Shown: in pieces, positions 4,762 to 30,170 of the stretch
Layout of the letters: every line of letters begins with the position of its first letter
How positions within the stretch are numbered: position 1 is the stretch's first letter
Source: an uncultured Candidatus Saccharibacteria bacterium
Lineage (GTDB): Bacteria > Patescibacteriota > Saccharimonadia > Saccharimonadales > SZUA-47
Reading direction: 5' to 3'
Assembly (NCBI GenBank): GCA_964419675.1
Contig: CAYQPN010000002.1
Span: 3,073-67,072 of the forward strand
Length of the DNA stretch: 64,000 nt
Translations under genes and position numbers: made by a program
The notes under the pieces: generated by a model
What the model was told of the DNA's origin: nothing
Seen by the model: the letters and a program-made list of their open reading frames with translations, nothing else
Databases searched by the model: none

Positions 4762-7617
4762 TTACCGAAGATTTACTACGTGTTCGTTTTGAAGTAAATC
4801 ATCCGGGCTTTTCGGCGTTGTATTGCTTTGTTGTTGATTTACTATAGGCGCTACAGGAGCCGTCTGCTGAACTTTTTGACTGCCAACTGGACTTTGTTCA
4901 TCGCCTGGCATTTGAACCGCTACAGGAGGCCGTTGAGCACCCTGAGAAGCTGGTTGGAGTGGTGTCCCTATTTGAGTACCTGATGGCTGGGATGGCACTG
5001 TTGCTGTACTAGGATTTTTGAATGGTGATGCAGGAGTTTTAAAAGTATTAGTTTGGCGTTTTTGCATCCAATCATCCAGGAAGCTTGAGCCACTACTTGG
5101 AGGCTTTTGTGCTCCTGGATTAGCATTAAAGTTCCTTCCAAAATCTGGACCTTGCTTTGCAGCAGTTACCGGCTCGTTCGTTCTTAATCGTTCAAATATT
5201 TCCTTTTCAACAATTGCTTTCGGCCTTCCGTGCTTTGCAGCAGATAACTGCTTTAGGGCACTTGCTAGCTCTTTGTTTGGGGTCCCCAAAGGTGGTAATC
5301 CGGTCATACTAAACGGCTGAGTTGGTATTCCACCAATTAACATTCTAACCACCGCATTATAGTTTGGAATACGCTGTAGATCGTCCATATCAAAAACTGG
5401 GGTAAACTGTTTGACTAAAAACTCTGCATCCGCGGTACCAACTCTGAAAGACACGATAGTACCAACATTTCCAAATACAGCGTCCCTTATTTCTTCCGTC
5501 AATTGAGTAGTGAACTGGTTAGCCACAATGAGGTTTAATCTATACTTTCTTGCTTCACTAAGAATTGTTGCGAAAGAATCCGTTGAGAAGTTCTGAAACT
5601 CATCCACATAAAGCGCAAAGTCTGTTCTCTCATCTTCGGGGATGCTGGCTCTACTCATAGCCGCGGCCTGGAATTTCATAACAAATATCATACCCAGTAG
5701 CTTAGAGTTGAGTTCACCGGTGCGTCCTTTGCTTAAATTCACGAGGAGAATTTTTTTGTTATCCATTATTTCACGCAGATTGAAAGAACTCTTTGTCTGG
5801 CCAATAATATTACGCATCATTTCATTACTTAAAAATGCACCAAACTTACTTACGAACCAACCAAGGACTTCACTTTTATGGTAGTCGCTGGTTTGCGCCA
5901 TCTCCTTATTCCAAAAATCTAACACTGTATGGTCGGTAACATGTTTTAACTTATCTTTTGCGTATTGGTTATCTGTGAACACTTTAGGTATGTCTATAAA
6001 TGTCGCTCCGACCGGATCAGCCATGATCGTTAATGCAGCGTTCCTAAACCAGTGCTCATAACGTGGTCCAATAATACCTTGATGTTGAGGGTCGTAAAGT
6101 TTATAGAGCATATTAATCGCTTCTTGTATCAGAAAGTCCTTTTGTTGCGGACTATCGAATTCAAACAAGTTTAAACCAAGAGGATAATCCATGTCAGCAG
6201 GACAAAAGTAAATCACATCTTCTGTTCGCTCTTTTGGAACCATAGCAAGCAACTTTTCAGCCGTATCACCGTGAGGATCAATAAACGCAAACCCCTCTCC
6301 GTTTAGCATGTCCTGTAGAGCCATGTTTTCTAGGAACGTTGATTTACCGGTTCCTGTCTGCCCAACTGCATAGACGTGACGTCGTCTATCATTAAGATCT
6401 AGATTAATCTTCTTTTTTGAACCTCTGAACACGTTATACCCCAACAATAGACCGCTGTCAGGTATATTTCTTGGGCCGTCGACCTGCTTGGAAGCCTGAC
6501 GCTCTAATTGCGTAGTTGGGATATTACTCTGAGTAGGAAAATGGAAAAGGGTTGCTAACTCTACCGAATTTAGGACTGATTTATTATTTTCAGGTGGGAA
6601 AAATCTTAAAATATAAGAAGTTATGAAGCTATCGATGTCTTTAGCGGCCGCAAACTTGAAACCATTCTTACCAGGAGAATCGTATAGCGCAAAAGTAGCG
6701 ACAAGATTATTTAAAATCGACTGAGCTTTCTGGGATAAATTCGAAGATGAAACAACACGGATTAACACCTCATATGCAGGATATTTAGCCTTTTCTTCAA
6801 TTGCATCAACTATAGACTGCTCTGTCCCAGATATTTGCTTGTCTTCATGTTTCTTCTCGTCTTTGTCCTCTGGCGGTTTTACAGGTGCGATCGCCAATTG
6901 TTTTACCCATGAGAATGCTAGGTCTGACTTTTTGCTCTTCTTCTTACCTTTTCTTTTCTTTTCAGCATATGCGAGCGCATTCTTACGCCATGTGCTTTGA
7001 GCCGGTCGAAGAAGAATCTGTATACCGGCACCGTCTTCTTTATCTAGCGTGGAAAGAGCATTAAGAATTGACTGCAGGGTATCTCGCTTAATGTCTTGAA
7101 AGGTTGCTATTGGATATGCCGAATCTTCTTTTAATGTTAGTTCCCCGCCCATCGTGGCGCTTGTCTTGCCGACAGGACTAAAAATATTGTGTTCAGCTAC
7201 TTCTTCTAGACGAGCCGACGGGTAGGCGCTCGTAATCGCCTGCTGGACCACATCTACTAAAGCGACAGGTACTGCAGTATAAAAATGGACAAAACCCCTT
7301 GTCCCAACTATCTCAAAGGCAAAGTGTCGTTGCCCATAATACTTACTCTTAAAACCCTTCTGAGTGGTGCTAGCGATAATGTTATAAAGAATCTGCGCTT
7401 TAGAGATGGTCTCATCCATAACATCGCGCTCGTCTCTGGACCCCACTTCAGTGTCATCGCTCTGTGGCGGAAGATGTATAAGCATGGGTACCATCTTTAA
7501 GCCACGCTCAAAATTCTTCTGTTCCCTGAAAACCTTTCGAGAATGATAATAACCAGTAAAGACACCAACTGCGACAATAAATAGTGCTACCACCAAAAAA
7601 ATTAATAATCCTGGCAT
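4762..7617 (-). CDS. Membrane-anchored P-loop ATPase of the TraG/VirD4/TraD coupling-protein or HerA-like type
   Basis: 951-aa ORF with an N-terminal TM helix. Walker A GQTGTGKST, FIDPHGD, Walker B-like LYVDEFQNF, NLIVANQ. About 150 aa of P/Q/S-rich C-terminal tail. Confidence 0.8.
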   Translation of the reverse strand: MPGLLIFLVVALFIVAVGVFTGYYHSRKVFREQKNFERGLKMVPMLIHLPPQSDDTEVGSRDERDVMDETISKAQILYNIIASTTQKGFKSKYYGQRHFAFEIVGTRGFVHFYTAVPVALVDVVQQAITSAYPSARLEEVAEHNIFSPVGKTSATMGGELTLKEDSAYPIATFQDIKRDTLQSILNALSTLDKEDGAGIQILLRPAQSTWRKNALAYAEKKRKGKKKSKKSDLAFSWVKQLAIAPVKPPEDKDEKKHEDKQISGTEQSIVDAIEEKAKYPAYEVLIRVVSSSNLSQKAQSILNNLVATFALYDSPGKNGFKFAAAKDIDSFITSYILRFFPPENNKSVLNSVELATLFHFPTQSNIPTTQLERQASKQVDGPRNIPDSGLLLGYNVFRGSKKKINLDLNDRRRHVYAVGQTGTGKSTFLENMALQDMLNGEGFAFIDPHGDTAEKLLAMVPKERTEDVIYFCPADMDYPLGLNLFEFDSPQQKDFLIQEAINMLYKLYDPQHQGIIGPRYEHWFRNAALTIMADPVGATFIDIPKVFTDNQYAKDKLKHVTDHTVLDFWNKEMAQTSDYHKSEVLGWFVSKFGAFLSNEMMRNIIGQTKSSFNLREIMDNKKILLVNLSKGRTGELNSKLLGMIFVMKFQAAAMSRASIPEDERTDFALYVDEFQNFSTDSFATILSEARKYRLNLIVANQFTTQLTEEIRDAVFGNVGTIVSFRVGTADAEFLVKQFTPVFDMDDLQRIPNYNAVVRMLIGGIPTQPFSMTGLPPLGTPNKELASALKQLSAAKHGRPKAIVEKEIFERLRTNEPVTAAKQGPDFGRNFNANPGAQKPPSSGSSFLDDWMQKRQTNTFKTPASPFKNPSTATVPSQPSGTQIGTPLQPASQGAQRPPVAVQMPGDEQSPVGSQKVQQTAPVAPIVNQQQSNTTPKSPDDLLQNEHVVNLR

Positions 7618-7620
7618 GAT

Positions 7621-8025
7621 TTATTCTTCACTAACCTTTATATCTTTATCGTATCTTTTCTTAATATATTCTGCTTTTACCTTATTTATTTGTTTGTTCT
7701 GGTTATACGGATCACCCGTAGTTTGATTGACAATTTCTTTTGCTTTTCTAACCCAAGCTTTTTCTATAAGCTCGATATCGTCCGCAACAGGGGGAACATC
7801 TAGTTGCACCGTTGCGCTCACAATACCTTTCGATGTTGATGATGGCGTTGCATATTGAGCTGTTTGTGCTGAGATAATCGTTTGTTGCGTAGATTGTCCT
7901 TGGCTAGTCGCACCGGCCTTTTCACTCAACATCGAACCGGCTGAATCCTCAACCCCGTCAAATGAGGTTTCGGATCCTTGTACTTCTGGTAGATCGCCGT
8001 CTTTAAGAGTTTCGTTGGGTTCCAT
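7621..8025 (-). CDS. Hypothetical protein (acidic/S/T/Q-rich N-terminus, basic C-terminus)
   Basis: 134-aa ORF ending 4 nt upstream of the ATPase start, co-oriented with it; no family recognised. Confidence 0.55.
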   Translation of the reverse strand: MEPNETLKDGDLPEVQGSETSFDGVEDSAGSMLSEKAGATSQGQSTQQTIISAQTAQYATPSSTSKGIVSATVQLDVPPVADDIELIEKAWVRKAKEIVNQTTGDPYNQNKQINKVKAEYIKKRYDKDIKVSEE

Positions 8026-8058
8026 TACTATAGATTATATCAGTACATTCAACTTAGT

Positions 8059-8394
8059 CTAAGCCCAAGTTCTGTAAAAATAGAACACCACAATAACACC
8101 GAGGGAGGTTGATAATAAAATATCTCCAAAGCTAAGTTGACCAATTCCAGACATCAGAAGAAGTAAAACAGTGATGCTTGACATACTAAAAATTAACGAC
8201 TTAGAGAATAAACTTCGTGTTTTTAATAGTTTCTTTGAAACAAAAAGCATCCCAAACGAGAGAGATATCCAAAAAAGTACCACCGGAACAAAAACATATG
8301 CGATGTTTCTATCTCTAGGGCTAACAGTAAACAGGAACAATACTAAAGACGAAAAAGTAGAAAAGCTAATTAAAAACAGGTTTCTTTCTTTCAC
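8059..8394 (-). CDS. Hypothetical integral membrane protein
   Basis: 111-aa ORF with 3-4 hydrophobic helices; first gene of the minus-strand run ending at 4762. Confidence 0.55.
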   Translation of the reverse strand: MKERNLFLISFSTFSSLVLFLFTVSPRDRNIAYVFVPVVLFWISLSFGMLFVSKKLLKTRSLFSKSLIFSMSSITVLLLLMSGIGQLSFGDILLSTSLGVIVVFYFYRTWA

Positions 8395-12187: not shown

Positions 12188-12582
12188 TACTTAGACAGTG
12201 ACTATAAGCCGGGTTTTGTCACAATCGCCCTTGAAAAGGGCTCTTGTGGCTAATCATCTATCTAGTCCTACTATTGCTAGCAGGCTCAAGCGGTTTATCG
12301 GCAGACGTCGGACAAACGACCGTAGTTAAACGATGATTCTACCTCCTTGCAGCAGGCAGGGTTTACCATTCTCTGAAGTCACCCTCAGAGATTACGAGCT
12401 CTTACCTCGCTCTTTTCACCTATCCCGTAAGTGTTTAGACTCACGGTGTTTTGTTTCTGTGGCACTTTCCCTAGAGTTACCTCCGGTTGCCGTTAGCAAC
12501 TGCCCTATCCATTTGCTGCCCGGACTTTCCTCCCTTCATAGCATTGAAGCTACGAACGGCGATTAGCCGTCACGACTAAGCC
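12188..12582 (-). ncRNA. rnpB: RNase P RNA (bacterial type)
   Basis: The minus strand carries the universal blocks GAGGAAAGTCCGGGC (revcomp of 12518-12532) and GACAAAACCCGGCTTAT (revcomp of 12204-12220). Ends pair as P1 (CTTAG..GTGAC / GTCAC..CTAAG). The ORF at 12333-12566 here is spurious. Confidence 0.85.
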
Positions 12583-12585
12583 CTT

Positions 12586-13401
12586 CTATTGTATCGCATC
12601 TGCGCCTTTTACGGCATCTAAAGCTTTGTTCACTTCCCTATCTGCAAGTTTGTTAAGCTCCCGCGGAATATGAGTATATGAAATCGATTTAATTTGAGAT
12701 GATAACTTTTTTGCAAGTTCGTATAAAGACCACAAATCTCTATTTTTAACCCGGAATATCCCCTTCATTTGGCTGACTACCAACATACTGTCTAGTTGAA
12801 CATCTAATTCCTGTACTTGATTTTTTATACACCACTCTAGCCCCATGATTAAGGCGTGGTATTCAGCTTGGTTATTCGTGGTAACTCCAAGATATTTGTT
12901 ATCTGAAAATATAACTTGGCCGTTTGCATCTGTTACCACAAAACCAGACGCTGAAGGACCTGGATTGCCTCTCGAGCCTCCGTCTGCAAAAAGTTTTGAT
13001 ACTTCTCTGAACCTTTCATTTGTACTATTTTGTTCTAAGAATTTTCTTGGTGTTTCGTAGGGTATAAACTCAAACTTCAGAATCGTAACTTGAGTATTCT
13101 CGTCTACGTGCTCTCCGTAAAAACGACGAAAAGTAGCAATCATCTCTAAAGAATCCTTAAAATCCCCCCCTGAATTAAAGTATTCTGTACCTAGTTGAGT
13201 TATAGCTTTTATTTCAACTTCTTTTATTAACAAAACCCCTGTTAGTAGCCAGCTGGATGGGCTTGTATTATCTACTTTGTCTACTAGCTCTACTCTGTCC
13301 CCCGCAATAATATCTTTATCATCATTTACGCGGAAGGTGGCGGTTTTTTCGCCTTTTTTTATTTTTTCTGCATATACGTGCTCAAACTTAAGCTGTTTCA
13401 T
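12586..13401 (-). CDS. ASCH (PUA-like) domain fused to RNase HI-like domain
   Basis: 271-aa ORF. The N-terminus KIKKGEKTATFRVNDDKDIIAGDRVELV resembles ASCH. The C-terminus ADGGSRGNPGPSASGFVV...NNQAEYHALIMGLEW...DSMLVVSQM...REVNKLAD resembles RNase H. Confidence 0.8.
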   Translation of the reverse strand: MKQLKFEHVYAEKIKKGEKTATFRVNDDKDIIAGDRVELVDKVDNTSPSSWLLTGVLLIKEVEIKAITQLGTEYFNSGGDFKDSLEMIATFRRFYGEHVDENTQVTILKFEFIPYETPRKFLEQNSTNERFREVSKLFADGGSRGNPGPSASGFVVTDANGQVIFSDNKYLGVTTNNQAEYHALIMGLEWCIKNQVQELDVQLDSMLVVSQMKGIFRVKNRDLWSLYELAKKLSSQIKSISYTHIPRELNKLADREVNKALDAVKGADAIQ

Positions 13402-19923: not shown

Positions 19924-19952
19924 TGCTATCTATAGCTTTTACAGCTATAATC
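19924..19952 (+). promoter_or_regulatory. tRNA-Val promoter
   Basis: TTGCTA (19924-19929), 17-nt spacer, TATAAT (19947-19952); 13 nt before the tRNA 5' end. Confidence 0.55.
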
Positions 19953-19965
19953 TACCCCTGTACAA

Positions 19966-20042
19966 GGGCAATTAGCTCATTTGGCTAGAGCGCCACATTG
20001 ACGTTGTGGAGGTGAAAGGTTCAAATCCTTTATTGCCCACCA
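19966..20042 (+). tRNA. tRNA-Val (anticodon GAC), CCA encoded
   Basis: Cloverleaf read by hand: acceptor GGGCAAT/ATTGCCC, anticodon arm CCACA-TTGACGT-TGTGG, T-arm AAAGG-TTCAAAT-CCTTT, 3' ACCA. Confidence 0.93.
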
Positions 20043-20049
20043 AAACTAG

Positions 20050-20078
20050 AACCGGTCCATCTGACCGGTTATTGTTTT
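20050..20078. terminator. Terminator after tRNA-Val
   Basis: Stem AACCGGTC / GACCGGTT with a 5-nt loop, followed by ATTGTTTT. Confidence 0.6.
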
Positions 20079-20106
20079 GGTTGATGATATATGTGAATCT
20101 TTCCCT

Positions 20107-20217
20107 AGGTGAAAGGCGAAGAAGCCCTGTGGGCTTTTGAGTTTTCCTTGCTTGGCCGAGGCAAATGCGGTTCCGCTCTTTGCCGAGCAAATATGGGCAA
20201 ATCCTTTGTTGCCCCCA
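20107..20217 (+). repeat. Partial tRNA-Val 3' copy interrupted in the T-loop by an 81-nt insert (element X copy)
   Basis: AGGTGAAAGG (20107-20116) equals tRNA positions 20010-20019. CAAATCCTTTGTTGCCCCCA (20198-20217) matches the tRNA T-arm/acceptor with 3 mismatches. The insert is homologous by eye to sequence beside tRNA-Arg. Confidence 0.55.
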
Positions 20218-20244
20218 TCTAAATCTGATCTATATGACTAGTTT

Positions 20245-21324
20245 TTATTTTTGATACCCTTCACAAATCCGCATCATGTATCGTAAGTTGTGGATTGAAG
20301 CTAGCGTGCCGGCCAGTGGGTCGCCAGACTTGAATTGATGGCGCAGGAAGGCTCTTGAGAACCCATTTGCACATGTGTAACAATCGCAGTCATCTTCAAT
20401 TGGCCTAGAGTCTTCTTTAAATTGCTCGTTTGTTAGAGCCATCTTCTTGTCATTTTCTCCCCATACTGATGAATGTCGGGCATTTCTCGTTGGCAACACG
20501 CAATCTAACATATCAATGCCGTTCTCTACCGCTATTCGTAAATCCTCTGGTGTGCCAACACCAAGAAGAAACCTGGGGCGCTTTTTATCATACAAAGGGG
20601 CCAAAGCTTGTAAGACTTCCGTCATCTCGTCTCTGGTTTCTCCTACGGACAAACCGCCGATTGCTATGCCGTCTACATCACTATTTTGAATAATTTCTAA
20701 GCTTTTTTTGCGTAATTCAATATCTAAGCCACCTTGTACCACCCCAAACAATAGGGGTCTCTCCCCCGGTTTCATATTCTTGGTTAAGCGCTTGAATTCC
20801 ACTACACATCGAGCTAACCACCTGTGCGTTCTATCATATGCATCTTTAACATCCTTTGGTTTTGCATCTTTTGTGCCTATCAAATGATCAAAAGCCACTA
20901 TCATATCCGAACCAAGATCTAGCTGTATCTGCATAGATTTTTCAGGCGTTATTGTGCGAGTGTCACCATTTACCGGGTCTTTGAAAGTAACTCCTTCTTC
21001 GGTTACTTTGGCGTGTGCATCCAAAGAAAAAACTTGAAACCCACCAGAATCGGTCAACATAGGGCCTTTTCTATTAGCAAATTTATGTAACCCACCTAGA
21101 TTATTTATAACTTCTTCTCCTGGATTTAGATGCAAGTGATAGGTGTTTGCCAGAACTATCTGCACACCCGTATCTATAACCTGCTGCGGGGTTAGGCCCT
21201 TCACTGCTCCTCTTGTACCGTCCGGCATAAAAGTTGGAGTAACAACATCACCTGCTCGTGTGTGGAGTATCCCTGTTCTTGCGTAATTACCTATTAACTT
21301 TTTTTCTGTGAATAATTGATACAT
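20245..21324 (-). CDS. tgt: tRNA-guanine(34) transglycosylase
   Basis: 359-aa ORF with TPTFMPDGT, LANTYHL, TDSGGFQVFSL, GLSVGE and the CDCYTC zinc site. Confidence 0.95.
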   Translation of the reverse strand: MYQLFTEKKLIGNYARTGILHTRAGDVVTPTFMPDGTRGAVKGLTPQQVIDTGVQIVLANTYHLHLNPGEEVINNLGGLHKFANRKGPMLTDSGGFQVFSLDAHAKVTEEGVTFKDPVNGDTRTITPEKSMQIQLDLGSDMIVAFDHLIGTKDAKPKDVKDAYDRTHRWLARCVVEFKRLTKNMKPGERPLLFGVVQGGLDIELRKKSLEIIQNSDVDGIAIGGLSVGETRDEMTEVLQALAPLYDKKRPRFLLGVGTPEDLRIAVENGIDMLDCVLPTRNARHSSVWGENDKKMALTNEQFKEDSRPIEDDCDCYTCANGFSRAFLRHQFKSGDPLAGTLASIHNLRYMMRICEGYQK

Positions 21325-23796: not shown

Positions 23797-25401
23797 TTAG
23801 TGAGAACTTACTACTTCACCGCTGTCAGACTTGACAGCTTTTTCAGTAATATCAAACTTATCAAGGTACTTCCCAAACATTAATCGTGTCTGTGAATATA
23901 TTGCAGCAAAAGAGCTGTAGCAGATAGTTGTAATTGGCAACAATGCCCACTGAAGAACCATCCAGATTGTTCGGTGTCTCTTATACCGTTGAGGCTTTGG
24001 GGGCAATATTTTAAAGCTTAAAAACATCGTGATAAAGATACCAAGCATGGCTGCAGTTTGTAGTTTGCTAGATATCTGAGGGAGCTGGTTAGCCAAGAAG
24101 TCTGTTTGATGAAATAGCCATGGTATTAGTGCCCCAAAGGCTAGAATTAACGGTGACGTTGCCCAGCTTAAATGTCCCTCAACCAGTCGCATAAATTTAA
24201 AAATTCTATCGTGCAAAGGAATTTTATTCTTTTTAAAGAATGCGTATTTAGCAACATACGCGATATCTGATACGCCCCAGGCCCAACGTCTTAACTGGAT
24301 AAACTGGGCTTTTAAGGTACGTCTATACCCGTCAGCTAATACTGCATCCTGATAAATAGGTAAAAATATTGGTATAACTTCGTGTTTACCATCAAAAGCA
24401 AAATAACTACGCCAAAACTGATGTCCGTCTTCTACCACTGTTCTTACACTCCAAAAATCCGTTTCAAGTAGGGCTTCTAGACTCTGGGCGTGAGCAGAAA
24501 AGTTGCGCAACATATGCTGCCTAAGAGCCTGAATCATCATCCAGTATGAGTTTCCTGTAGCGATTACACGCATCGGAGCCGGTGCGTCCCAAATATTGTT
24601 AGTAAACATAGGAATCGGCTGAAAAGATAGCATTTTAGGGTCATGGCAAACAGTGTAAACATATGATAGCCCAGCAAAATATGACGGATGTGGGCGATTA
24701 TCTGCGTCAAGTGTAGTAACCAGAACATTTTTAGGATCATAACCGTTTTGCTTCACAATTCTTGCAAGCTCCCTACCCGTAAACGTTATATTTCCGCCCT
24801 TGCCTATTACTTCTCCTGGTGCATCAATATGCTTAACTGCTTTTGAAATTAAAAATACATCTTCATACTCTTTCATTAGCTTTATAGCTTGTTTTTCTAC
24901 GGCAAGTCCACCCCTGTTTTCATATGCCAACAGCACTATAATTTTTTTCATGTCATAGTGACTGTTTTTGATGTTCTCTAATGTTGGTTGCAGAATTTCG
25001 CGAGCTTCATTCCAGGTTGCAACTATCACTGCGTGGATGATATCTTCGCTTTTAATACCATTCGGGTTCTCGTTTTGACGCTTCTTATTGTCATAGTGCC
25101 ATTTGGGGAATTTTTTAGTTTCATTGTGTTCTTGATCAAGGTCAGCTATTAGCTCTTCCCAGTCAATTTTCTGATGCTGTTGCAAAACCCGCCAACCCTG
25201 AACGGCACGAATGTTTAAGGCTACAGCCTTTACAAACCAGAGGAGTAGATAGCCTATCATGAATATTGCAGCCAAACGAATGCTGGTAAACGCCAAAATA
25301 AAAGGTAGCAACAACACCAGCCAAGACACCAAACCAGGAAGTATTTCAAACAACCTATAACTAAAGTTCTTATCCTTCTTAAATGGTATTTCGTACTTCA
25401 T
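23797..25401 (-). CDS. Membrane-embedded family 2 glycosyltransferase (processive, cellulose/chitin-synthase-like)
   Basis: 534-aa ORF with flanking TM helices, TLDADNRPHP (D,D,D) and QLRRWAWG (QxxRW). Confidence 0.8.
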   Translation of the reverse strand: MKYEIPFKKDKNFSYRLFEILPGLVSWLVLLLPFILAFTSIRLAAIFMIGYLLLWFVKAVALNIRAVQGWRVLQQHQKIDWEELIADLDQEHNETKKFPKWHYDNKKRQNENPNGIKSEDIIHAVIVATWNEAREILQPTLENIKNSHYDMKKIIVLLAYENRGGLAVEKQAIKLMKEYEDVFLISKAVKHIDAPGEVIGKGGNITFTGRELARIVKQNGYDPKNVLVTTLDADNRPHPSYFAGLSYVYTVCHDPKMLSFQPIPMFTNNIWDAPAPMRVIATGNSYWMMIQALRQHMLRNFSAHAQSLEALLETDFWSVRTVVEDGHQFWRSYFAFDGKHEVIPIFLPIYQDAVLADGYRRTLKAQFIQLRRWAWGVSDIAYVAKYAFFKKNKIPLHDRIFKFMRLVEGHLSWATSPLILAFGALIPWLFHQTDFLANQLPQISSKLQTAAMLGIFITMFLSFKILPPKPQRYKRHRTIWMVLQWALLPITTICYSSFAAIYSQTRLMFGKYLDKFDITEKAVKSDSGEVVSSH

Positions 25402-26086: not shown

Positions 26087-26270
26087 TGGTGGGCCCGACC
26101 CGACTGCGCTTTGCTTGCACGGTATCTTATTTCTTACATGCTAAGAGGTAGCATGACGAAATAAATACCTGTAGACCGGACGTTCGCTTTGCTCACTCTT
26201 CGCCAGTTCAACATCCAAGTCGGAGTCAGAGCAAGAAAAAAGCCCCATGCTTTGCATGAGACTTTTGTCT
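26087..26270 (-). repeat. tRNA-Asp downstream element ending in a second copy of the tRNA 3' end (element X-like)
   Basis: Terminator-like hairpin plus T6 directly after tRNA-Asp. About 150 nt later, TGGTGGGCCCGACC (26087-26100, plus strand) repeats the tRNA 3' end TGGCGGGCCCGACC (26271-26284) at 13 of 14 positions, including CCA. Confidence 0.5.
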
Positions 26271-28308: not shown

Positions 28309-28451
28309 ACATATCACACTATCTATTATAAAGGTTCGACTCCGAGTCGGCCACAGTCTTACTTGCAACAAAGTCGCAAATCAGCTGTCGCCACACCTCG
28401 ACTCGGCCAAGGCCGGGTCTCCGGTCTTGCAAAAGTCCACAGGACTTTTTC
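28309..28451 (-). repeat. Structured element between a tRNA-Arg pseudo-copy and tRNA-Arg (element X copy)
   Basis: Starts (minus sense) with hairpin AAAAGTCC-TGTG-GGACTTTT. Contains CTTGGCCGAG, an 8-bp long-range helix CCGAGTCG/CGACTCGG, and a 12-nt inverted copy of the tRNA-Arg T-arm (AGGTTCGACTCC at 28332-28343, plus strand). Confidence 0.5.
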
Positions 28452-28508
28452 ACCTACAACCTTTTCCTTGAGGTGCCGAACTGCTCTATCCACTCAAGCT
28501 ACCGGACC
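28452..28508 (-). pseudogene. Truncated tRNA-Arg-like copy (5' two-thirds only)
   Basis: Revcomp GGTCCGGTAGCTTGAGTGGATAGAGCAGTTCGGCACCTCAAGGAAAAGGTTGTAGGT matches tRNA-Arg positions 1-54 at roughly 80-85% (hand count). It has a 2-nt longer anticodon loop and breaks at the T-loop, with no 3' half. Confidence 0.6.
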
Positions 28509-29124: not shown

Positions 29125-29160
29125 TACACATATTATACGCTATAGCGTATAATATGTGTA
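29125..29160. promoter_or_regulatory. Perfect 36-bp palindrome: symmetric divergent promoter and/or recombinase or operator site
   Basis: TACACATATTATACGCTATAGCGTATAATATGTGTA is its own reverse complement. Each strand reads TACACA, 17 nt, TATAAT. It lies between divergent ndk and xerC/D-like genes. Confidence 0.6.
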
Positions 29161-29243
29161 CTACGAATGAAGCGCAGTTTGTTCTATTGCCAATGATTAG
29201 TTTAAAATTTGTGTCGCACAATCTAGCAGATTTCGCTACAATT

Positions 29244-30170
29244 ATGAATATGCTTTTATCCAAAACTAAGACAGATTTTTTAGAATATTTAGAGATAGAA
29301 CAAAACCGTTCACAAAAAACTATTGAAAACTACGACCACTACCTTACTCGCCTACTTGACTACGCCGGCGAAATCAAAATTAGCGATATAGACCCCGAAT
29401 TAGTACGAAAATGGCGTCTTTGGCTAAACAGATTAGGTACAAACACCGCTGATGAGTTGCAAAAAAACACCCAAAACTACCACCTAATAGCACTCCGGGG
29501 ATTTTTAAAGTTTTGTGCCAAGCGCGGTATTAATGCTATGCCTGCAGATAAGATTGAACTAGCCAAAAGCAACCGAAAACAGGTGACATTTCTCAACACA
29601 GAGGAGTTAGAGCGACTATTTAATGTCCCAAAGCTTGAAACAATAAATGGTTTACGCGATAGGGCTATTTTAGAACTTCTCTTTTCAAGCGGATTACGTG
29701 TTTCTGAGTTAGTAAATCTTGACCGTGAACACATTAATCTTAAACGCAAAGAGTTTATGGTGCGTGGAAAAGGACAGAAAGATCGACCCATATTTATTAG
29801 CGACACGTCTGTTTGGTGGCTAACCCAATATCTTGAAAAGAGAAAAGATAACAGCCGACCATTATTCATCCGCTACAGTGGCTCTAAACAGGTCAATATC
29901 AGCGGAAATTATTACCGCTTAACTGCACGTAGCGTTCAACGACTGGTGGCGCGATATGCCCTGCTTGCGGGGATTACCAAACATGTCAGTCCGCATACAC
30001 TAAGACACAGCTTTGCTACTGATCTGCTCATGAATGGGGCAGACTTACGTTCAGTCCAGGCAATGCTTGGTCACAGTAACATTTCAACAACCCAAATCTA
30101 CACCCACGTCACCGACCCGCATCTAAAAGCGATACACCAGAAATTCCACCGCAAACCAGAAAGTAGCTAA
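29244..30170 (+). CDS. Tyrosine recombinase, XerC/XerD family
   Basis: ORF 29154-30170. The likely start is ATG 29244 (MNMLLSKTKTDFLEYLEIEQNRSQKTIENY, SAM-like N-domain). The catalytic region has RVSELVNL, HTLRHSFAT and GHSNISTTQIYTH. Confidence 0.9.
   Translation: MNMLLSKTKTDFLEYLEIEQNRSQKTIENYDHYLTRLLDYAGEIKISDIDPELVRKWRLWLNRLGTNTADELQKNTQNYHLIALRGFLKFCAKRGINAMPADKIELAKSNRKQVTFLNTEELERLFNVPKLETINGLRDRAILELLFSSGLRVSELVNLDREHINLKRKEFMVRGKGQKDRPIFISDTSVWWLTQYLEKRKDNSRPLFIRYSGSKQVNISGNYYRLTARSVQRLVARYALLAGITKHVSPHTLRHSFATDLLMNGADLRSVQAMLGHSNISTTQIYTHVTDPHLKAIHQKFHRKPESS

Follow-up and report, generated by a model that had tools for sequence, protein, structure and literature searches.

A probable family of hairpin-rich mini-cassettes at the 3' ends of tRNA genes in Saccharibacteria

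Directly behind a tRNA-Val gene on a segment of a Saccharibacteria (TM7) chromosome lies an element (positions 20043-20217 of the 64-kb stretch of DNA analysed here, referred to below as the window) that most likely belongs to a family of non-autonomous mini-cassettes, mobilised in trans and specific for tRNA gene 3' ends; the mobilising enzyme and the strand chemistry are inferred. In Saccharibacteria the family, which we call E, appears to consist of hairpin-rich DNA cassettes of roughly 140-190 bases placed at the 3' ends of tRNA genes. We found no description of it anywhere in the literature searched, and it is probably both previously undescribed and among the smallest site-specific bacterial insertions seen. 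Saccharibacteria and other CPR bacteria have tiny genomes and are thought to be poor in mobile elements.

The TGT (queuine tRNA-ribosyltransferase) encoded in the window shares at most 83% identity with its relatives, nearly all of them Saccharibacteria MAGs or unclassified bacterial MAGs. ARAGORN identifies tRNA-Val(GAC) at 19966-20042 on the plus strand (Rfam tRNA model, 65.7 bits), together with tRNA-Gly, tRNA-Thr, tRNA-Asp, and tRNA-Arg(CCT) on the minus strand. An earlier sequence-only reading had claimed that the 3' third of tRNA-Val recurs downstream of the intact gene, with its T-arm split by an insert of 81 nt. Both the strings and the spacing hold, every string lying where that reading had put it: AGGTGAAAGG occurs exactly twice in the window with both strands scanned (at 20010, within tRNA-Val, and at 20107), CAAATCCTTTGTTGCCCCCA (20198-20217) copies the last 21 nt of tRNA-Val, CAAATCCTTTATTGCCCACCA, with one mismatch and one base deleted, and the two blocks are separated by the 81 nt from 20117 to 20197. 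This insert begins with the hairpin AGAAGCCC-TGT-GGGCTTTT, continues with a T-run, and includes CTTGGCCGAG at 20151-20160. Taken by itself, the tail copy at 20198-20217 is merely moderately improbable (its local score of 16 was equalled in 3 of 2000 shuffles and in 14 of 2979 random windows); it is the comparative data that establish its reality. One correction concerns the start of the element, which is 20043, directly after the CCA, and not 20107, because the terminator at 20050-20080 is part of it; both a terminator of its own and a degenerate inverted arm belong to the unit. The features of this copy and of its counterparts elsewhere in the window are listed in Table 1.

Table 1. Coordinates of the element behind tRNA-Val, its component parts, and related elements in the window.
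Feature	Position	Strand	Basis or remark
Intact tRNA-Val(GAC)	19966-20042	+	Last 21-22 nt (T-loop to CCA) form the left direct-repeat copy, the element's target
Bidirectional intrinsic terminator, element-borne	20043-20080	+	Terminator scan; assigned to the element by analogy to the empty-site pairs
Degenerate inverted arm and left T-loop box	20081-20106	+	Alignments; covariance-model match begins at 20093
AGGTGAAAGG, copy of tRNA-Val variable loop and T-stem 5' strand	20107-20116	+	String search, alignment
Module hp1, CGAA-[GAAGCCC TGT GGGCTTT]-TGAG	20117-20141	+	Conserved hairpin of the family, covariation
Conserved junction TTTTCCTTGCTTGGCCGA	20142-20159	+	Alignment
hp2, GGCAAA-TGCGGTTCCGCTC-TTTGCC	20160-20184	+	MFE folds
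Linker GAGCAAATATGGG	20185-20197	+	Sequence, folds
Right T-loop box remnant and second tRNA-Val tail (CAAATCC TTTGTTGCCC-CCA)	20198-20217	+	
Chimeric relative at tRNA-Arg(CCT)	28328-28508	-	Alignment, 0 of 1000 shuffles against the Val element
Analogous element after tRNA-Asp	26087-26270	-	Homologous to the Asp element of locus L045

The terminator hairpin of the window element is AACCGGTC-CATCT-GACCGGTT (20050-20070), and its T-tract closes with TTGG, which is able to pair with the CCAA of tRNA-Val. The left T-loop box reads GTGAATCTTTCCCT (20093-20106; GGATTYGAACC in relatives), and in the alignment the AGGTGAAAGG copy stands where relatives have GAYAGG. The final base of CTTGGCCGAG doubles as the first base of hp2. 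At the right-hand end, GGGCAA (20195-20200, three of its bases inside the tail copy) repeats the acceptor 5' strand and can form a microhelix with the TTGCCC of the tail copy, for which L007a has the counterpart GGGCG...CGCCC. With its one mismatch and one deletion the tail copy is decayed; no second terminator follows it, and the TGT stop codon lies at 20245. Given the degenerate left box, the imperfect tail, and the lack of a second terminator, the copy behind tRNA-Val is in all likelihood an old and slightly decayed one.

The duplicated pieces do not amount to a second tRNA gene. ARAGORN calls none at the duplicated tail, and the tail copy and the copy of the T-stem 5' strand are tRNA-Val-derived fragments without a cloverleaf, a statement that describes the parts and not the whole element. 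Rfam 15 run on the window at the gathering score returned tRNA and RNase P only, and at E <= 10 the region 19950-20260 gave no credible match. A reading of the minus strand as a tRNA-like gene was rejected (no ARAGORN call, no Rfam match, no fitting acceptor or T-arm), as were, on the same grounds and by inspection, readings of the plus strand as a tmRNA-like, class II tRNA-like, or hammerhead-like RNA. By contrast with these library searches, a covariance model made from the relatives' elements matches the window at 20093-20204 (63.5 bits, E about 1e-12); this match is partly by construction, because the window copy is one of the 10 seed rows. All the remaining strong matches of the model are known elements behind tRNA genes, and two weak ones have E>0.4.

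The family becomes visible in the relatives. We gathered 80 loci around TGT, of which 74 are Saccharibacteria-like, and the overall sample comprises about 90 loci of 2-15 kb each, without any whole genome. The spacer between TGT and tRNA-Val ranges from 12 to 3165 nt across relatives; many sites are short and empty, and many relatives carry a homologous element of about 130 nt directly past the tRNA-Val terminator. These Val elements close with an exact or near-exact copy of the tRNA-Val 3' end of their own species (for example in L001, 21/21; L004, 22/22; and also L007, L010, L015, L018, and L050). A census of the sampled loci, for which we required the last 14-15 nt of the tRNA to recur with at most 2 mismatches, found a same-strand copy of the gene's own 3' end 58-193 nt downstream of 30 of the 184 tRNA genes with sufficient downstream sequence, the carriers being of the Val, Asp, Arg, Gln, Tyr, Thr, and Gly types; a nearby upstream or opposite-strand copy was present at none of the 184. 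When metagenomes were scanned with a 20-nt element motif, 7 of the 15 matches were true ones, with the same core behind tRNA-Arg, tRNA-Gln, and tRNA-Tyr, each closing with the tail of that tRNA. One core is common to the flanks of Val, Arg, Gln, and Tyr genes. The other 8 metagenome matches were chance occurrences in coding DNA.

Comparison with empty sites reveals the inserted unit itself. L018 and L061 have tRNA-Val in common and downstream DNA that is about 85-90% identical; relative to L061, L018 has an extra segment of 163 bases (first terminator, arm, core, and 22-nt tail copy) flanked by a 22-bp repeat, and the terminator of the empty L061 site is homologous to the second terminator of L018. 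A like pattern, with about 190 extra bases in a divergent subfamily, distinguishes L064 and L062 from L065. Because both pairs show it, we conclude that the terminator comes in with the cassette and that the flanking repeat runs from T55 to A76. The two pairs thus show clean insertion of 163-190 bp with a 21-22-bp flanking repeat that extends from the T-loop to the CCA. The tRNA gene that bears a cassette remains intact, with the terminator of the cassette directly after it; farther out come the second tail and the terminator that the gene originally had. In order, the inserted unit comprises a private terminator, a degenerate inverted tail with its box, a structured core (hp1 and hp2), a direct box, and the tail copy. 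A further comparison, of L001 with L006, shows a first terminator in common even though L006 is without an element; it gives no right boundary, because the downstream genes are unrelated.

These data also bear on what the sequence-only reading had made of the duplication, namely a miniature, tRNA-T-loop-associated element family with att-like repeats and too small for autonomy or, alternatively, repeated decay of large insertions. The first proposal is supported, by homologous elements behind the tRNA genes of many relatives and by two independent empty-site comparisons in which clean insertions are flanked by the T-loop-to-CCA repeat, and its non-autonomy by the absence of a recombinase gene adjoining the examined copies (judged by eye, with Pfam applied to L088 alone). 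The alternative of repeated decay is not favoured. The picture of a T-arm split by an insert generalises only in part: L004 and L064 have a copy of their own variable loop and T-stem 5' strand before the core, and Asp-type elements carry GCCGGTTCGG.

Cassettes also occur in arrays and with inverted parts. Tandem arrays with a degenerate distal repeat are found in L007, L012, L027, and L091; that of L007 runs tRNA, term1, Ea, term2, Eb, term1, Ea', term3, where Ea and Ea' are nearly identical in core and terminator and the distal tail is aberrant. The elements at tRNA-Thr(CGT) in L021 and L045, like the Asp element of L018, carry hp1 inverted and next to the distal tail, from which it follows that the core is able to sit either way between its boxes.

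Read in the sense of the tRNA, a typical long copy starts with an intrinsic terminator whose T-tract is extended by TGGN, which pairs with the NCCA of the tRNA (in L093, N follows the discriminator base). There follow a short degenerate inverted copy of the tail, the inverted T-loop box GGATTCGAACC, and the hexamer GAYAGG, which in L004, L064, and the window is replaced by the local variable loop and T-stem 5' strand (in L004 and L064, the version from their own tRNA). Next come CGAA-hp1-TGAG and the conserved junction (TTTTCC..CTTGGCCG), and then hp2, a position that is always a hairpin and whose sequence is free across the family (its stem is GGCAAA/TTTGCC in the window versus GCCAAA/TTTGGT in L007a). 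The unit closes with the direct T-loop box TCGAATCC and the tRNA-specific T-stem 3' strand, acceptor 3' strand, and NCCA. The tail match ends at the CCA in most copies and extends into the flank in L007, L021, L050, and L088; a second, different terminator usually stands after the tail copy. All long-form cores examined have inverted T-loop boxes at both bounds (GGATTCGA...TCGAATCC) and covarying hairpins inside. As regards the mobile-cassette reading, two observations count against it: the left T-loop box is internal and not terminal, and covarying hairpins are equally compatible with a functional RNA.

Compensatory changes are present in 5 of the 8 pairs of hp1, with 96% of cells paired and a score reached by 0 of 500 shuffles; the two T-loop boxes can pair in the folds, closing a three-way junction; and the tRNA 3' third joins with the terminator and the inverted arm in one long imperfect hairpin (z of -6 to -13.6 across 14 elements). 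The arm resembles the local tail more than it does the tails of other tRNAs (combined p = 2.5e-6, a signal that comes partly from the T-loop variant and the discriminator base). Arm pairing is maintained in L019 and L045 via G.T wobbles that exist on the tRNA-sense strand only. Overall, the strand bias of folding is weak (p = 0.07-0.08); both strands of the window copy fold equally well, and the folding energies leave the strand assignment undecided.

Such structure raises the first of three rival explanations, which we consider unlikely: that the elements are functional structured RNA genes or cis-acting RNA modules behind tRNA genes, acting in termination or processing, or as small RNAs in which a single-stranded 3' tail mimics the tRNA end, the identity of tail and tRNA being kept by selection or gene conversion. 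Several points speak for it, namely the strong hp1 covariation with conserved loop and closing pairs, the conserved junction nucleotides, consistent folds in which the T-loop boxes close a three-way junction and a tail of 14-15 nt is left free, an own terminator after most copies, pairs of the G.U type on the tRNA-sense strand in several copies, and an anti-SD-like CCUCY loop in Asp-type cores. Against it, the core occurs both ways relative to the tail and the tRNA, so that a 3' sense tail would become a 5' antisense leader; a scan of the window copy from the tRNA terminator to the core revealed nothing promoter-like on the tRNA-sense strand; presence among close relatives is patchy, with clean empty sites; tails are decayed in several copies, that of the window included; there is no Rfam match; and in the window copy neither strand folds better than the other. 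Also rejected was a reading as guide RNA (scaffold plus 3' guide, cf. the omega-RNA of TnpB), because the core occurs both ways relative to the tail.

Two further places in the window had been put forward as similar, the flank of tRNA-Arg and, more loosely, that of tRNA-Asp. The first claim held (22 of 26 positions identical over the hairpin, matched in 0 of 1000 shuffles, plus an exact 10-mer). The element at tRNA-Arg is a chimera: a degenerate copy of the 5' 57 nt of tRNA-Arg (28508->28452) lies upstream of the real gene and is joined at the T-stem 5' strand to a core with hp1 (TGAA-AAAGTCC TGTG GGACTTT-TG ... CTTGGCCGAG), and it closes with a Val-like TCGAA-CCTTTAT that merges into the TATAAT upstream of the real tRNA-Arg (28308->28233). 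The second claim failed at the level of sequence, since the tRNA-Asp element has no significant sequence similarity to the Val element (265 of 1000 shuffles), although the architecture is alike. It begins with a terminator and an inverted T-arm-like piece, continues with GGCGAAGAGTGAGCAAAGCGAAC and a long hairpin whose loop is CCUCU (26155->26137), and ends in the tail GGTCGGGCCCACCA (26100->26087), which copies the tRNA-Asp 3' end but for a single mismatch; it is homologous to the Asp-type elements of relatives.

Partial duplications of this kind suggest another rival, in which the elements are by-products of recombination at conserved tRNA boxes without any dedicated element, arising through homology-facilitated illegitimate recombination in naturally competent Saccharibacteria and enclosing arbitrary filler DNA. 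In its favour, duplications of the D-loop or 5' side with unrelated filler exist too (tRNA-Arg of the window, L010, L052), and the T-loop box is common to most cassette-bearing tRNA genes. We regard it as very unlikely, however, because the filler is not arbitrary: a structured core is conserved across tRNA types and species and is accompanied by a matched inverted arm.

If the cassettes are mobile, an enzyme has to be sought elsewhere. ORF clustering and inspection by eye revealed no recombinase, integrase, or transposase adjoining the copies examined, the ORFs being housekeeping-like; a 404-aa ORF bracketed between long repeats in L088 has no Pfam match. The sole recombinase seen is a Xer-type tyrosine recombinase, encoded in the window at 29154-30170, whose synteny with ndk and tRNA-Arg is kept in L084 and L094. 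In an NCBIfam scan the Xer-like protein scored 131.5 bits, far below the integron-integrase cut-off of 265 bits. It may be the trans-acting enzyme, a candidacy that rests on its presence alone, without data on recombinase activity. Neither the collections searched nor the roughly 90 loci of 2-15 kb, a sample that includes no whole genome, yielded an autonomous IS or transposase relative. Pattern scans, and blastn with a complete element, found neither cassette copies nor a full-length relative in viral-contig, phage, and plasmid collections; of three pattern scans of viral contigs, one was without matches and the third gave a single chance match. Among 120 viral-contig matches to AGGCGAANNNNGCCAGYGGC, 20 had hairpin-capable flanks and none resembled the element, those 20 being dismissed because all are GC-rich, apparently coding, and without T-loop boxes.

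The remaining rival holds that the duplications are passive attL/attR scars left by deleted integrase islands or prophages in tRNA genes, with no small mobile unit at all. A repeat from the T-loop to the CCA is the classic footprint of T-loop-class tRNA integrases, and the repeats seen here match that footprint; in addition, gene content changes especially often at the 3' flanks of tRNA genes in these genomes, the 404-aa ORF of L088 is bracketed by long repeats, and further partial tRNA duplications are present. On the other hand, independent deletions would not be expected to leave one unit of 140-190 bp with constant boundaries behind many tRNAs, the empty-site pairs differ by exactly one cassette, the hairpins covary instead of decaying, and no integrase remnants were recognised in or beside the examined copies, nor was anything similar present in the viral, phage, and plasmid collections. 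We consider this explanation improbable, more so than a functional RNA.

The mini-cassette explanation that we favour comes with a putative mechanism. The cassette would be present as a small circle or folded single strand comprising tail, terminator, arm, and core, in which tail, terminator, and inverted arm would fold up as an imperfect hairpin, a mimic of the tRNA 3' end in double-stranded form, by analogy with the hairpins of integron attC sites and CTX-phage attP. A recombinase supplied in trans would then cross the cassette with the tRNA gene within the T-loop-to-CCA segment, with the palindromic TTCGAA of the T-loop as the predicted usual boundary of exchange, and the tRNA gene would be rebuilt, in keeping with the attP x attB scheme that tRNA-targeting integrases follow. 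Exchange between the two inverted boxes would yield cores in either orientation, and repeated insertion at a tRNA would yield tandem arrays.

This sub-mechanism of a carried tail and a folded hairpin bears somewhat under half of the explanation's weight; neither an excised circle nor recombinase activity has been seen. That the tail travels with the cassette is suggested by the L084 element at tRNA-Arg(CCT), whose distal tail is unlike its own gene and identical to that of the L088 element at tRNA-Arg(TCT), and by the Val-type tail of the window's Arg element; the model also leans on the private terminator, on a repeat that ends where the tRNA constraint ends, and on the hairpin mimic of the target. 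Ranked below it, and conceivable, is a staggered-cut or target-primed insertion that duplicates 22 bp of target. The elements of L088 (Arg) and L090 (Gln) have related terminators and cores, yet their tails and arms match the local tRNA; these local tails and the terminator common to L001 and L006 therefore favour a target-derived duplication, by staggered cuts or target-primed synthesis. The carried-tail model is, in our judgement, probably hard to square with colonisation of new tRNA types. Lower still, and unlikely, is spread by short-homology recombination after natural transformation.

Several systems already known come close to the cassettes. One comprises tRNA-targeting integrative elements with att sites of the T-loop class, along with CIMEs (cis-mobilisable elements), their derivatives without an integrase; in common with the cassettes are tRNA 3'-end direct repeats from the T-loop, a gene rebuilt by an element-supplied end, tandem arrays at a single tRNA in which the distal repeat is the oldest and most degenerate, and an element without a recombinase. 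However, the cassette measures about 150 bp without cargo, as against kilobases, its core occurs at many different tRNAs, it has a private terminator, an inverted arm that hairpins with the tail, and an invertible core, and no cognate integrase or full-length parent was found for it in the loci and collections searched. Integron attC cassettes and CTX-type IMEX (which use IntI or XerCD) are alike in being small promoterless units with an imperfect palindrome that mimics a double-stranded target, in keeping structure while leaving sequence free (here, variable terminators), in forming arrays, and in the availability of a host Xer-family recombinase. They differ in that the boxes of the cassette, GGATTCGAACC / GGTTCGAATCC, are tRNA T-loop sequence and not RYYYAAC/GTTRRRY or dif, that its target is a tRNA gene, and that its single-strand recombination is inferred only.

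Like MITEs, the cassettes are short, non-coding, multi-copy, and hairpin-rich, with inverted boxes and an enzyme acting in trans (for the cassette, an inference). Unlike them, they have a repeat of 21-22 bp that is always the T-loop-to-CCA segment of a tRNA, in place of a 2-10-bp TSD; they lack terminal TIRs, the left box lying 40-60 nt inside the unit, behind the terminator; they are strictly specific for tRNA 3' ends; and no parent IS was found in the loci and collections searched. The cassette fails defining features of CIME, integron cassette, and MITE alike. Casposons and CRISPR spacer integration (Cas1-family) resemble it in tRNA 3'-end insertion, long duplications, and polarised array growth. 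Their duplications are of 14-15 bp for casposons and of the whole repeat for CRISPR. They differ in that no cas1 or polB was seen in the loci examined, that the cassette is non-coding, and that its repeat is perhaps carried by the element and not made from the target.

A bolder reading, which we offer as no more than a possibility, would make the cassettes a new class of minimal site-specific mobile elements of about 150 nt, built from hardly anything beyond a structured core and a folded imitation of the tRNA gene 3' end, in which single-stranded hairpins would enter tRNA genes via the lone Xer-type recombinase, or via an RNA intermediate, each insertion replacing the tRNA tail and terminator with the cassette's own. 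Were this true, the cassettes, abundant as they would be in the reduced Saccharibacteria genomes, would drive the plasticity of tRNA flanks unnoticed and would offer a natural template from which tools for tRNA-targeted insertion could be built. Independently of that reading, a family found at about one-sixth of the tRNA genes in the sampled loci would constitute a substantial overlooked part of the mobilome and would account for many of the "tRNA fragments" that confuse annotation in Saccharibacteria and CPR genomes. The attP/attB logic of tRNA-targeting integrases would reach down to a non-coding unit of about 150 bp, whose recognition apparently rests on a folded copy of its target; and if the housekeeping Xer is the trans enzyme, this would be a new exploitation of Xer, with a tRNA gene as the target instead of dif. 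We mention, finally, that short derivatives of about 42 nt are present in L012, L027, L033, L048, and L060.

If the elements (hairpin-rich cassettes of roughly 140-190 bp behind tRNA 3' ends) are moved by a trans-acting recombinase, an enzyme that is inferred rather than shown, one possible source lies in the window itself: a Xer-type tyrosine recombinase gene, with XerD, XerC and XerA as its top NCBIfam matches, some 650 nt away from the element at tRNA-Arg. In two loci from relatives (L084 and L094), a Xer-type gene with 77% identity likewise adjoins ndk, tRNA-Arg(CCT) and an element. Because the gene is kept with the same neighbours, it is a syntenic core gene and remains merely a candidate for the trans-acting enzyme.

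A larger bracketed segment is present in L088, where intact tRNA-Arg(TCT) with approximately 95 nt of flank recurs 1.7 kb downstream, giving flanking repeats of about 115 nt. Enclosed between the copies are an element, a degenerate pseudo-tRNA-Arg and a 404-aa ORF that matched nothing in Pfam. The enlarged core (structured middle part) of this locus shares with the cores of tRNA-Asp-associated elements the module GCCACGCGCA-hairpin-GAGCATGGC, whose outer stem covaries (AGCCA/TGGCT vs AGCCG/CGGCT) and whose loop, CCUCU or CCUCC, is anti-Shine-Dalgarno-like. At the terminus of the Val element, 20195-20217 (+), a possible acceptor microhelix can be drawn (GGGCAA-AUCCUUUG-UUGCCC-CCA); its counterpart in L007a, an element in a relative, is GGGCG...CGCCC, which matches the acceptor stem of that element's own tRNA.

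In two relatives (L010 and L052), the acceptor stem of an intact tRNA-Val is unusual (GGATCCG/CGGATCC), and within 16-50 nt downstream comes a copy of the usual tRNA-Val that is truncated at its 5' end. This arrangement has the appearance of an original gene displaced by an incoming one.

As a separate observation, three loci show a mirror-image insertion type at tRNA-Val, with the 5' end duplicated: the first 20 nt of the gene (GGGCTCGTAGCTCAGTTGG, as far as the D-loop) recur 86 nt upstream of the intact copy, leaving an insert of approximately 65 nt. Upstream of this partial duplicate there is a promoter-like TATAGT. In one of the three (L065), the duplication is present although the 3' element is absent. 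In L012, tRNA-Arg(CCT) is likewise preceded by a partial duplicate of the gene's 5' end.

Coordinates of recombinase, tRNA-associated and other features
Feature	Location	Strand	Detail
Xer-type tyrosine recombinase gene	window 29154-30170	+	Phage_integrase plus SAM-like N-terminal domain
tRNA-Arg(TCT) bracket	L088 6570-8480
Module with CCUCY loop	window 26155->26137	-
Module with CCUCY loop	L035
Module with CCUCY loop	L088 8248-8266
Unusual tRNA-Val and truncated copy	L010 7401-7477 and ~60 nt downstream (lower coordinates)	-
Unusual tRNA-Val and truncated copy	L052 7098-7280
5' partial tRNA-Val duplication	L062 ~5163-5248
5' partial tRNA-Val duplication	L064 ~7122-7207
5' partial tRNA-Val duplication	L065 ~2506-2591
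tRNA-Arg(CCT)	L012 230-390		between the arms of a 16-nt inverted repeat, GGATAACCCCGCACCT / AGGTGCGGGGTTATCC
Bacterial class A RNase P RNA	window 12188-12578	-
ASCH-domain and RNase H (RVT_3) fusion gene	window 12586-13401	-
Sizeable Pfam-less ORFs (951, 134, 111, 534 aa)	window 4762-8394 and 23797-25401	-

Elsewhere in the window, several ORFs had no Pfam match at E <= 1e-5, and the 534-aa protein family is seen again in relatives downstream of tRNA clusters. We note in addition that the ASCH-RNase H fusion gene directly follows the RNase P RNA (12188-13401, minus strand).
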